A stretch of DNA of 64,000 nt. It comes from a virus. The translations under genes were made by a program, and so were the position numbers. A model generated the notes under the pieces. It did no database searches. It saw nothing but the letters and a program-made list of their open reading frames with translations, and was not told where the DNA came from. Positions 16,525 to 17,238 of this stretch are shown one piece after another. Positions within the stretch are counted from its first letter, which is position 1. Every line of letters starts with the position of its first letter. The stretch is taken from IMG/VR virus record IMGVR_UViG_3300045988_159685; one strand, 5' to 3'.

Positions 16525-17238
16525 TTATGTATTATGTATAAATAATTTTTCAACCACTTTAAATTGATTATTTTTGTTTCTGTCTAATGTTCTTGTAAAT
16601 GGTCTTTTCCAAATACATTTAAAATCATCAGGTGCGTTTAATTCAGATATGAAAACCATATTGTCTTTACTAATTTCACGCATATGCTCCCAAAATTCTT
16701 CGGTATTAAATTTTCCAGACGTATAACCCGTTGTATTATCGTATGGAGGATCGGCATATACAATTGAACCTGCGGGGATAACAACATCTTTATAATCATT
16801 ACAAGTGAATACAGCGTCCTGTAAATTAGCAAAGTCTTTTAATATACTACGCTTGCTTTGTGCCGCATAATTGGTACCCGTTTTGTTACGGGCATAACCG
16901 CCAAAGAATTTGCCACCGAAGGAACATCCAAACCCCACAAACCCCGTTAATGCTGGGTTATCGTCTTTGTGTTCTCTTATTGATTTATAAGCCTGCTCGG
17001 AAATAACTTCTGGCAATTCGTATCCATCCTGCAACGCCTGCCATAGTGCAACCAAATATTTATGATTGTCATTACAAATGACACTTTTGAAATGCGGTGC
17101 CAACTTCGACTCGACCGCACAACTTCCACAAAACAAGCTAATTAAGCGCCCGTTACTCTCTCTCTCTCTCTCTCTCTCTCTCTCGATTGCTAACGCAATC
17201 GAGGCTGCTATTCGGCTCTTTCCACCTTGATATCTCAT
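16525..17238 (-). CDS. DNA N6-adenine methyltransferase (D12/Dam class) with internal dinucleotide repeat
   Basis: MRYQGGKSR.., LFCGSCAVE, ADPPY. Codons 18-27 (ERERERERE) are encoded by the (GA)14 tract. Confidence 0.85.
   Translation of the reverse strand: MRYQGGKSRIAASIALAIERERERERESNGRLISLFCGSCAVESKLAPHFKSVICNDNHKYLVALWQALQDGYELPEVISEQAYKSIREHKDDNPALTGFVGFGCSFGGKFFGGYARNKTGTNYAAQSKRSILKDFANLQDAVFTCNDYKDVVIPAGSIVYADPPYDNTTGYTSGKFNTEEFWEHMREISKDNMVFISELNAPDDFKCIWKRPFTRTLDRNKNNQFKVVEKLFIHNT
17155..17183. repeat. (CT)14 dinucleotide microsatellite inside the methyltransferase 5' coding region
   Basis: Read directly: ctctct... from 17155 to 17182 plus a trailing c. Confidence 0.95.

Follow-up and report, generated by a model that had tools for sequence, protein, structure and literature searches.

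A dinucleotide repeat and two out-of-frame N-terminal cassettes as a probable three-state switch in a prophage Dam-family methyltransferase gene

Introduction

What does a long, uninterrupted GA repeat do inside the 5' coding region of a phage DNA methylase gene? The repeat lies in a stretch of 64,000 nucleotides, here called the window (IMG/VR record IMGVR_UViG_3300045988_159685), and a first-pass annotation had proposed that the gene is potentially phase-variable. Phase variation of methyltransferases by repeats is a cornerstone of pathogen epigenetics that has been described almost wholly for Type I and Type III systems on the chromosomes of pathogens. In the phase-variable Type III mod genes, a repeat towards the 5' end of the reading frame for an N6-adenine methyltransferase shifts the frame and toggles methylation (accessible text of PMC1976455 and PMC5700931). 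Contingency loci of phages were first claimed in a 2025 bioRxiv preprint (PMC12633550), whose available text covers homopolymers in T2 agt and T4 rIIA and a poly-G tract in the receptor-binding protein gene of Fletchervirus; a poly-G in the methylase gene of BPP-1 is mentioned there and taken no further. The words methyltransferase, dinucleotide and start codon do not occur in the part of the preprint available to us, and "methylase" occurs only for BPP-1.

The methylase gene and its repeat

The features needed first are these:

16525-17238, minus strand: reading frame of the A-form methylase, 237 aa from an ATG start, a D12-class (Dam-like) N6-adenine DNA methyltransferase by its similarities
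17156-17184, minus strand: (GA)14G simple sequence repeat inside the D12-class methylase reading frame, hypermutable by the lengths found in relatives
13251-14096, minus strand: second D12 methyltransferase of the phage (PF02086, E=5.8e-40), with a single N-terminus and outside the switch

The 237-aa enzyme matches PF02086 from residue 3 onward (score 68.1 bits, cut-off 22, E=1.3e-18), which is its only Pfam match, and it also matches PHROG 56, "DNA methyltransferase" (E=1.4e-34). Its motifs run in the order N-terminal GGK, glycine-containing AdoMet motif I and DPPY. Among 64 homologues 42 positions are invariant, including G5, K7, F36-C37-G38 and the DPPY motif (D163-P164-P165-Y166), and G6 is kept in at least 90%. 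Searched by sequence, the PDB offered no more than a marginal match, to T4 Dam (E=0.003), so that Dam likeness had to be judged by fold. The AlphaFold model of the A-form (pLDDT 85, pTM 0.84) has as its best Foldseek matches E. coli Dam, T4 Dam and DpnM (E of about 1e-8 to 1e-9), together with Mcbe1; over the four, E runs from 3e-9 to 1e-7 and TM from 0.52 to 0.64. Profile matches and model together place the enzyme among the D12-class (Dam family, alpha-group) N6-adenine DNA methyltransferases. The window is poor in GATC (observed/expected 0.47), which does not identify the target of the enzyme, nor did palindrome statistics of the window identify its target sequence.

The element carries an integrase, a DnaB-like helicase and, by the look of the sequence, a Pol III alpha subunit, and is a temperate phage or prophage of Ruminococcus. 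A Pfam scan of the neighbours of the methylase gene gave one ERCC4 nuclease domain and left the rest without a match; nothing resembling a res helicase-nuclease was found among them, and the next large gene upstream is the one that looks like Pol III alpha. Instead of the Type III mod and res pair of a phasevarion, the locus has an enzyme of the D12 (Dam-type) family with Dam-like folds. When the 4 kb surrounding the gene were compared by Megablast with 50,697 GenBank phage records, nothing matched, and the phage has no sequenced isolate among them. The second methylase gene had been called Dam-like and repeat-free, in agreement with its PF02086 match and with the TRF output, in which none of the reported repeat arrays falls inside it.

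On the plus strand the tract reads (CT)14C over 29 nt, and TRF reports a period of 2, 14.5 copies and 100% matches. The first-pass annotation had the 14 GA units right but placed them one base off, at 17155-17183. Its reading of the tract as ERERERERE, in frame in the window between MRYQGGKSRI and LFCGSCAV, agrees with the translation of the reading frame, where these are residues 19-27. The whole (GA)14G makes up codons 19-28 of 237; it is uninterrupted, lies near the 5' end of the frame and has a unit length that is not a multiple of 3. By 100 shuffles of the window that preserve its dinucleotides, the expected number of GA runs of even 16 nt is 0.00, and the tract is the sole long non-AT dinucleotide repeat within the 64 kb; it is far beyond chance. 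In the A-form model the ER run extends the N-terminal helix (predicted helix 6-24) at its C-terminal end.

Two N-terminal cassettes and their signals

Upstream of the repeat the GGK motif is encoded twice:

17185-17238, minus strand: cassette A, MRYQGGKSRIAASIALAI, bearing the Y-x-GGK motif that opens the D12 Pfam profile match
17239-17305, minus strand: cassette B, IQYLGGKSRISKQISEVI, (V)IAIQYLGGKSRISKQISEVI, a second Y-x-GGKSRI copy in a different reading frame
GTG 17305 and ATT 17296, minus strand: candidate starts of cassette B, the ATT standing where relatives have an ATG
17248-17252, minus strand: Shine-Dalgarno (SD) sequence GGAGG of cassette A, placed 9 nt before its ATG
17153-17155, minus strand: TAA stop directly 3' of the repeat, ending frames that read the tract end as AGA-GAG-TAA

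Cassette B sits just 5' of the annotated ATG at 17238 and was overlooked at first pass. The offset between the two cassettes in the window, 58 nt, leaves a remainder of 1 on division by 3, and they are therefore in different reading frames. The candidate ATT start of cassette B follows an SD-like GAGGTG (17303-17308) by 6 nt, and the GTG at 17305 has no SD. The GGAGG of cassette A is itself encoded within the conserved S-E-V codons of cassette B. A 5-nt SD core is found upstream of the A start in all GA-tract loci but three; in some poly-G clades no SD can be recognised before cassette A, so that either start might predominate there.

The length of the tract modulo 3 determines which cassette is joined to the enzyme body: a remainder of 2 gives the state ON-A, 1 gives ON-B and 0 gives OFF. 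The window allele, with 14 units, is ON-A. In-silico edits of the tract gave 237 aa from ATG 17238 with 14 units, 260 or 258 aa from GTG 17305 with 15 or 12 units, and neither cassette joined to the body with 13 or 16 units; all out-of-frame readings ended as peptides of 27-55 aa. With 14 units the cassette B frame passes through cassette A and the repeat and then stops at the TAA directly beyond it. The same stop ends the cassette B frame in every ON-A allele, and it ends the cassette A frame in the 13- and 16-unit OFF edits; the GAGAGTAA junction is present in most of the GA-tract loci listed. The earlier expectation that a change of one unit in either direction would frameshift the gene after about 20 codons holds for the annotated ATG, but gaining one unit (or losing two) brings the body into frame with cassette B as a fusion of 258-260 aa, and so three states are apparent rather than two. 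As in a lic1-type locus, ATG 17238 and GTG 17305 / ATT 17296 lie in different frames, and in the edits a full-length reading frame runs from each.

In the B-form the spacing from GGK to motif I is about 46-50 residues, against 28-32 in the A-form. AlphaFold models the body and the cassette B helix of the B-form, the helix with moderate confidence (about 75-78), and gives the linker that is read out of frame (residues 30-49) a pLDDT below 50. The B-form model also matches Dam structures.

Tract length in the window's clade

The clade of the window comprises some 28 contigs, a few duplicates among them, that are about 93-96% identical to the window. Their tracts measure 15, 17, 19, 21, 23, 25 or 29 nt, and by length modulo 3 there are 14 ON-A, 7 ON-B and 7 OFF alleles, counted over 28 contigs with the few duplicates included. 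Flank identities were taken from BLAST alignments, the ungapped values having been discarded as misleading because of indels. Contigs L009 and L088 have 1 difference in 2,972 nt of flank and tracts of 15 and 17 nt (OFF and ON-A); L007 and L011, 99.6% identical, have 19 and 25 nt, and L008 and L082, 99.5% identical, have 23 and 17 nt. Across the family, 9 non-redundant pairs reach an identity of 99% or more, and 8 of them differ in repeat length, a figure inflated by deduplication, which removed pairs identical across the cassette region; the flanks of the nine pairs hold only 10 gap openings in 21,962 nt.

The length of the tract changes faster than its flanks do and shifts the frame, as a contingency locus requires. 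A slow accumulation of polymorphism among the assemblies could in principle give such a spread, and the near-identical pairs argue against it. The first-pass proposal had been made to depend on a comparison with relatives, and a single in-frame tract fixed among them was to count against it; with tracts of 15-29 nt, all frames represented, near-identical genomes that differ and methylase bodies that stay intact in OFF alleles (below), the proposal of a phase-variable methylase gains support.

Family-wide architecture

Homologues number 1,892 at E<=1e-10. Loci drawn from IMG/VR, ENA metagenomes and GTDB genomes were reduced to a non-redundant set of 91, and 84 of these carry the two cassettes, in most cases at a spacing of 55 or 58 nt, with (GA)n or a poly-G of 7-13 downstream; some clades have a second poly-G between the cassettes. 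The GA clades comprise 14 ON-A, 5 ON-B and 13 OFF loci, and the poly-G clades 15 ON-A, 14 ON-B and 14 OFF loci together with 4 in which both cassettes are in frame. The start of cassette B is an ATG in 47 of the 84. Hosts in the family include Ruminococcus bicirculans, Flintibacter and Acutalibacter.

B-form proteins have been called in public assemblies and in RefSeq. One 90%-identity cluster of 839 members unites the protein of the window with B-forms (254-269 aa) and shortened calls (176-203 aa), and by eye some bodies in it match or nearly match (P0129 with P0132, P0128 with P0125); ON and OFF forms with like bodies are found together in it. RefSeq and the gene callers list the three states as "DNA adenine methylase" of 176-269 aa with unrelated lengths; if the arrangement is confirmed, automated annotation mislabels these dual-cassette genes.

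Selection on the cassettes and alternative readings

The reading that competes best with three states is that of a plain two-state ON/OFF locus, in which cassette B is the remnant of a tandem 5' duplication, the long fusion is inactive or never made, and two of the three frames are OFF. It draws on the clade of the window, where cassette B has no ATG but an ATT in its place and a GTG that lacks an SD; on the predicted disorder of the B-form linker; and on 7 loci with a single cassette and a repeat, which show that a simple ON/OFF version exists. The conservation of cassette B speaks against it. In cassette A, Y, G, G and K are invariant in 83 loci and S, R and I are kept in 81 of the 83. The entropy of cassette B by codon position (11.7/5.6/23.9) is dominated by the third position, as is that of cassette A (12.3/6.9/22.6), in loci down to about 55-60% protein identity to the enzyme of the window. 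Between cassette B and the repeat, 71 of 74 loci keep the B frame open through cassette A; the third frame is open in 1 of the 74. GGT as the codon of the second glycine, which in cassette A would create TAA or TAG in the B frame, is found in 0 of 84 A cassettes and in 33 of 84 B cassettes (Fisher p=4.6e-12, an optimistic value, since the codon-usage and entropy tests used phylogenetically related sequences); the combination GGT-AAR is thus avoided in cassette A only. The codon signature marks cassette B as protein-coding and under purifying selection like that on cassette A. Some ON-B loci have a repeat that is short, interrupted or absent (L050, L051-53), and ON-B alleles are common, at 19 of the 84 dual-cassette loci and in B-form clusters of hundreds of members. 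A two-state locus is, on this evidence, improbable.

Every allele might instead yield active enzyme, if RNA polymerase slipped or ribosomes shifted frame on the GA or poly-G tract, and the length variation would then be tolerated noise. This would agree with the three frames being about equally common among the assemblies and with the intact bodies of OFF alleles, but it would leave no reason for a second GGK cassette or for an open second frame. The stop directly after the tract in one frame, and the ending of all out-of-frame readings within 27-55 aa, also tell against recoding, as does the nature of the tract, since (GA)n is not known to be a sequence on which RNA polymerase or ribosomes slip. 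We give this explanation little chance. The three frames could also be nearly equal in frequency because selection on the state is weak.

A dispensable gene drifting towards loss, with the tract as a neutral, unstable low-complexity linker, would account for the roughly one third of sampled alleles that are out of frame. Yet among the 26 OFF loci whose sequence runs as far as a stop codon, 24 keep an open body frame of 200 aa or more, so that OFF alleles appear by their frames to be intact and not decaying; the invariance of 42 positions with DPPY among them, the conserved position of a repeat whose type switches between GA and poly-G, and the sheer number of homologues likewise make such a pseudogene reading highly unlikely. 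The least likely explanation, that the length differences are artefacts of sequencing or assembly, can appeal to polymerase stutter at repeats and to the low coverage of many contigs (for example 1.9-3 in L087, L089 and L092), but the differences reach 7 units and come from many independent projects and assemblers, the same length recurs in contig pairs with identical flanks (L003/L004, L081/L083), and the conserved two-frame architecture is sensible only if the frame truly changes.

The proposed switch

We consider it likely that (GA)n is a contingency locus in a prophage orphan Dam-family gene and works as a three-state translational switch. Slipped-strand mispairing would alter the tract in 2-nt units and so reset the frame of the enzyme body (FCGSC...DPPY). 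When the body is in frame with cassette A, with its ATG and strong GGAGG, a short isoform of 235-239 aa would be made; when it is in frame with cassette B, a long isoform of 258-260 aa would result, with an out-of-frame translation of the cassette A DNA as its disordered linker; and with neither cassette in frame there would be peptides of 27-55 aa and no enzyme. From the 14 units of the window allele, the gain of one unit would lead to ON-B and the loss of one unit to OFF.

Differing levels of expression among the frames are suggested by the quality of start codons and SD sequences. Since cassette B starts with GTG or ATT in the clade of the window and with ATG in other clades, ON-B is probably a low-expression state in the former, and ON-A, ON-B and OFF would there correspond to high, low and off; the missing ATG of cassette B and the missing SD of GTG 17305 may even leave ON-B nearly silent in this clade. 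Under the proposed switch the long B isoform would be catalytically active, and switching within a clone would be frequent and reversible. The switch may also benefit the phage, by bet-hedging the methylation of phage or lysogen DNA between restriction of unmethylated DNA and methylation-dependent restriction or, alternatively, by epigenetic heterogeneity of lysogens.

More tentatively, and with doubt, the tandem, out-of-frame duplication of the Y-x-GGKSRI cassette together with the repeat may be an evolved multi-state epigenetic switch of gut prophages. One repeat would then select between two isoforms that differ in level or properties, and OFF, and clades with the second poly-G between the cassettes could reach nine genotypes. 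By such a multi-state switch the phage, or its Ruminococcus/Oscillospiraceae lysogen, might hedge between hosts that restrict unmethylated DNA and hosts whose Type IV restriction depends on methylation, or else form epigenetically distinct lysogen subpopulations.

The repeat-bearing Dam-like enzymes form a whole prophage family, in which the motif duplicated in a second frame would leave two of the three frames productive. If the three-state switch is real, temperate gut phages bet-hedge their own methylation state or that of their hosts, and coding in two overlapping frames can arise in evolution specifically to make room for a mutable repeat.

Comparison with known systems

The phasevarions (ModA of Haemophilus influenzae and Neisseria, ModH of Helicobacter pylori, ModM of Moraxella) resemble the locus in having a 5' repeat that frameshifts an N6-adenine methyltransferase gene. 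Phasevarion Mod enzymes, however, are chromosomal Type III proteins with a Res partner and two states, whereas the enzyme of the window is a small D12 orphan of a gut Firmicute prophage, and the repeats in its family are dinucleotide or poly-G and follow an essential N-terminal motif that is duplicated in a second frame.

At the lic1 locus two of the three frames are translated, and start strengths differ, giving strong, weak or no expression. This locus (licA) of Haemophilus influenzae, as reportedly described by Weiser, Love and Moxon in 1989, has (CAAT)n downstream of several ATGs in different frames. The likeness is that of a repeat 3' of alternative starts in two frames, with the graded expression proposed for the methylase deduced from ATG and GGAGG against GTG or ATT. 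The alternative N-terminal peptides of lic1 are short and are not known to carry a functional motif. In the methylase family, unlike lic1, each frame bears the full conserved motif, apparently under purifying selection, and the downstream copy is kept stop-free in the upstream frame. The available text of a review of phase variation (PMC11868660) was found to contain no mention of start codon, initiation codon or lic1.

The phage loci of PMC12633550, as far as its available text describes them, are alike in that hypermutable repeats make mixed progeny as a form of bet-hedging, but they are simple ON/OFF homopolymers of lytic coliphages and a few others, unlike the switch proposed for the window. 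In Helicobacter canadensis, repeat-mediated switching of C-terminal sequences has been described (PMC2823697, accessible text), and there too a repeat picks between protein ends in different frames; the alternatives given in that text are C-terminal tails, whereas those of the methylase family are N-terminal copies of one motif, each with its own start codon.

With T4 Dam, E. coli Dam and DpnM the enzyme shares its fold and motif order (N-terminal GGK, an FxGxG-like motif I, DPPY), but sequence similarity is very low, with the marginal match to T4 Dam noted above and 16-21% identity in structural alignments. We know of no repeat or duplicated N-terminus in any of the three. No phage D12 methylase that bears a repeat and has two N-termini turned up in the literature searched, and no earlier case is known to us of a conserved enzyme motif kept in two frames to allow a downstream frameshifting repeat.

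Hairpins near the repeat

Two putative secondary structures adjoin these elements:

17182-17203, minus strand: perfect hairpin CTCGATTGC-GTTA-GCAATCGAG, its 3' arm ending in the first GAG of the repeat
17307-17341, minus strand: hairpin with a T8 run, like an intrinsic terminator, directly upstream of the SD-like GAGGTG of cassette B

The first has a DNA minimum free energy of -10 kcal/mol (z=-6.1) and may affect slippage. In other GA clades hairpins of differing sequence adjoin the tract. A hairpin beside the repeat was considered as a general feature and rejected: it is strong in the GA clades but not so in most poly-G clades, and the 11 of 52 unique segments that beat 95% of shuffles are in many cases related to one another. 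Not being general, the hairpin is kept as an observation, outside the proposed mechanism. In L001 a T-G wobble pair in the stem of the terminator-like hairpin is replaced by a C-G pair; the position of this structure suggests that the methylase gene is transcribed by read-through.

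A Dam-like methyltransferase gene and its repeat

Sequence comparison points to a repeat-driven switch with three states at the locus near 17 kb, in the gene of a prophage Dam-like methylase, and gut Clostridia phages of a large family appear to share it. The repeat is an uninterrupted 29-nt tract, (CT)14C on the plus strand and (GA)14G on the minus strand, which the first-pass annotation had recognized but placed one base too low. Dinucleotide-preserving shuffles of the window give an expectation of 0.00 for a GA run of 16 nt, and a repeat scan of the 64 kb found only one other dinucleotide run, (AT)10 at 57835-57854.

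Features of the locus
16525-17238, minus strand: methyltransferase ORF, 237 aa, with the tract as codons 19-28
17156-17184: repeat tract
17153-17305, minus strand: cassette B ORF, encoding (V)IAIQYLGGKSRISKQISEVI
17182-17203, minus strand: perfect 9-bp hairpin CTCGATTGC-GTTA-GCAATCGAG, DNA MFE -10 kcal/mol, z=-6.1
17307-17341, minus strand: intrinsic-terminator-like hairpin and T8 run, between an upstream 63-aa ORF and the SD-like GAGGTG of cassette B

Translation of the 237-aa ORF bears out the initial reading, that the tract encodes ERERERERE between MRYQGGKSRI and LFCGSCAV of a Dam-type methyltransferase. The protein is a D12-class N6-adenine DNA methyltransferase by its matches to Pfam (PF02086, E=1.3e-18) and PHROG 56 (E=1.4e-34), by its DPPY (163-166) and FCG (36-38) motifs, invariant among 64 homologues, and by its AlphaFold model (pLDDT 85), which matches the structures of E. 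coli Dam, T4 Dam and DpnM. The family numbers 1,892 homologues at E<=1e-10.

Two N-terminal cassettes in different frames

Upstream of the annotated ATG on the minus strand, and missed by the first-pass annotation, is a second copy of the N-terminal Y-x-GGKSRI motif in a different frame (cassette B; the copy that begins at ATG 17238 is cassette A). The cassette B frame crosses the cassette A DNA out of frame as DEISRWKEPNSSLDCVSN, continues through the repeat and ends at a TAA directly after it, and the GGAGG Shine-Dalgarno of the annotated ATG falls within the S-E-V codons of cassette B. When the tract was edited in silico, 14, 11 and 17 units gave proteins of 237, 235 and 239 aa from ATG 17238 (ON-A, the short A-form); 15 and 12 units gave 260 and 258 aa from GTG 17305, with cassette B fused to the enzyme body (ON-B, the long B-form); and 13 or 16 units left only peptides of 27-55 aa from either start (OFF). 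The frameshift originally predicted for a change of one unit thus holds in these edits for a loss (13 units, OFF) but not for a gain (15 units, ON-B), which would swap the N-terminus without inactivating the gene. In the AlphaFold model of a B-form homologue (P0002, pLDDT 80) the body is kept, the cassette B helix scores about 75-78, and the out-of-frame linker (residues 30-49) is below 50.

Two cassettes are present in 84 of 91 non-redundant loci, usually at a spacing of 55 or 58 nt (each 1 modulo 3), and in dual loci the repeat follows the cassettes, directly before the conserved xFVSLFCGSC body. The low-GC clades have (GA)n, and the remaining clades, high-GC ones among them, have poly-G of 7-13.

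Frame states of dual-cassette loci (repeats of 7 nt or more)
(GA)n loci: ON-A 14, ON-B 5, OFF 13, both cassettes in frame 0
Poly-G loci: ON-A 15, ON-B 14, OFF 14, both cassettes in frame 4

Some poly-G clades have a second poly-G tract (G7-G11) of variable length between the cassettes, about 60-90 nt upstream of the body anchor (L033, L034, L041, L044, L048, L049 and L068-L070). It sometimes brings both cassettes into one frame, and the protein then has GGK-GGK in tandem (L033 is an example); up to nine frame combinations would be possible. Contigs L013 and L014 have one cassette only; a hairpin-plus-junction segment, TTGCGTCAGCAATCGAG, is tandemly duplicated there (about 3040-3085) and the GA run is down to about 9 nt, an arrangement that may represent the switch in decay or its ancestral form.

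Selection on cassette B and integrity of OFF alleles

Four tests identify cassette B as a real coding element. Its entropy at codon positions 1/2/3 (11.7/5.6/23.9) resembles that of cassette A (12.3/6.9/22.6); its frame is open up to the repeat in 71 of 74 loci regardless of current state, compared with 1 of 74 for the third frame; GGT as second glycine codon, which with a following AAR in cassette A would be a stop in the cassette B frame, occurs in 0/84 A cassettes vs 33/84 B cassettes (Fisher p=4.6e-12, a value that ignores shared ancestry); and ON-B alleles exist in which the repeat is short, interrupted or absent (L050, L051-53). Residues Y, G, G, K, S and I11 of cassette B are invariant in 83/83 loci, and R, I7 and I15 are kept in 81-82. 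As judged from these alignments, both cassettes are under purifying selection. A plain ON/OFF switch with cassette B as a relic is therefore unlikely, being disfavoured by the selection signatures on that cassette. Recoding at the level of RNA or the ribosome is less probable again, because it leaves the upkeep of a second cassette and its open frame unexplained. The OFF alleles are not decaying by the measure of ORF length, since 24 of the 26 whose sequence reaches a stop codon retain a body ORF that is 200 aa or longer; with such intact bodies and strong conservation, a decaying gene is very improbable.

Variation in tract length

Loci were collected by a protein-guided scan of IMG/VR (79), an exact DNA pattern in metagenome contigs (14) and from GTDB genomes (25). 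The anatomy of the locus and its natural polymorphism in all three frames are directly visible among them, and the initial idea of phase variation is both supported and extended. Tract length varies among near-identical relatives. The window's clade, about 93-96% identical to the window over roughly 4 kb, has tracts of 15, 17, 19, 21, 23, 25 or 29 nt; a manual count of 28 contigs (a few of them duplicates) by length modulo 3 (2, ON-A; 1, ON-B; 0, OFF) gave 14 ON-A, 7 ON-B and 7 OFF. L009 and L088 differ at 1 position in 2,972 nt of flank and have tracts of 15 and 17 nt (OFF vs ON-A); L007 and L011 (99.6% identity) have 19 and 25 nt, and L008 and L082 (99.5%) 23 and 17 nt. Family-wide, repeat length differs in 8 of 9 non-redundant pairs at least 99% identical, a figure raised by the prior merging of pairs whose cassette regions were identical; the flanks of the nine contain 10 gap openings in 21,962 nt. 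Multi-unit differences across independent projects make an assembly artefact the least credible explanation of all.

The 90%-identity cluster of the window's protein has 839 members, including B-forms (254-269 aa) and truncated calls (176-203 aa), and by eye the bodies are the same or nearly so (P0129 vs P0132, P0128 vs P0125). In public annotation (P0121-P0134) the three states stand as separate proteins of 176-269 aa, and every named one is a "DNA adenine methylase". Among RefSeq entries, WP_410082018.1 represents the A-form, and the B-form is represented by WP_270760192.1 from Ruminococcus bicirculans, which starts MIAIQYLGGK; truncated calls of 196-203 aa begin downstream of the repeat and are without the GGK motif.

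Proposed mechanism and related systems

Within a clone, slipped-strand mispairing would frequently change the tract, and the long isoform would be active. ON-B is probably a weak state in the window's clade, where the ancestral ATG of cassette B has been replaced by ATT (the codon in 19/84 loci) and the alternative GTG lacks a Shine-Dalgarno. The lic1 locus of H. influenzae has high, low and off levels, and ON-A, ON-B and OFF would yield the same series. The benefit might be bet-hedging of progeny phage or lysogen DNA methylation between classical and methyl-dependent restriction, or else epigenetic heterogeneity among lysogens. The switch is directly testable in cultured lysogens.

The locus would work in like manner to phase-variable mod genes but falls outside their family: the enzyme is a Dam/T4 Dam-like D12 protein and no res-like gene was found among the scanned neighbours. 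At the sequence level it qualifies both as a contingency locus and as a multi-start translational switch. Contingency loci in phages (T2 agt, T4 rIIA) were first claimed in a 2025 preprint, which also mentions, without studying it, a poly-G in a BPP-1 methylase gene (PMC12633550). In incomplete literature coverage, which does not establish novelty, no account was found of an enzyme gene with a second, out-of-frame copy of a conserved motif that makes room for a repeat.

Hairpins and transcription

The 3' arm of the 17182-17203 hairpin reaches into the repeat as far as its first GAG. Other GA-tract clades have hairpins of different sequence in the same place, such as GCCGCTGT-GATA-ACGGCGGC in L106; one is also found in L017 and L073 (loop variants) and in L015, L042 and L032, and at the same position in most poly-G clades none was found. 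The hairpin may modulate slippage. Given the terminator-like element upstream, the methylase would be transcribed by read-through only. A T-G wobble pair of its stem is C-G in L001, and its T-run is T7 or T8 among relatives.

The phage and its hosts

The window derives from a temperate phage or prophage with an integrase, a DnaB-like helicase and a Pol III alpha-like ORF (1,005 aa, by sequence resemblance).

Other features of the phage
260-1465: integrase
31612-32802, minus strand: transposase (PHROG 506, E=1.8e-122)
35165-36643, minus strand: nicotinamide phosphoribosyltransferase (PHROG 448, E=7e-156), an auxiliary metabolic gene
57776-57854: A/G-rich imperfect repeat (57776-57819), then the (AT)10 run

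Proteins identical or near-identical to the window's methylase are annotated in Ruminococcus sp. and Ruminococcus bicirculans; genome records name Ruminococcus sp. YE282, Flintibacter muris and Acutalibacter caecimuris as hosts, and MAG records with the locus are mostly Oscillospiraceae or other Clostridia. The 57776-57854 repeats lie between the nearest large plus-strand ORFs (56685-57473 and 58045-60768) and might form a second variable repeat within a promoter region. Short palindromes are strongly depleted in the whole window (observed/expected: GGCC 0.15, CCGG 0.18, CGCG 0.27, GATC 0.47), a pattern suggestive of, or at least compatible with, restriction acting on the phage despite its two D12 methyltransferases.
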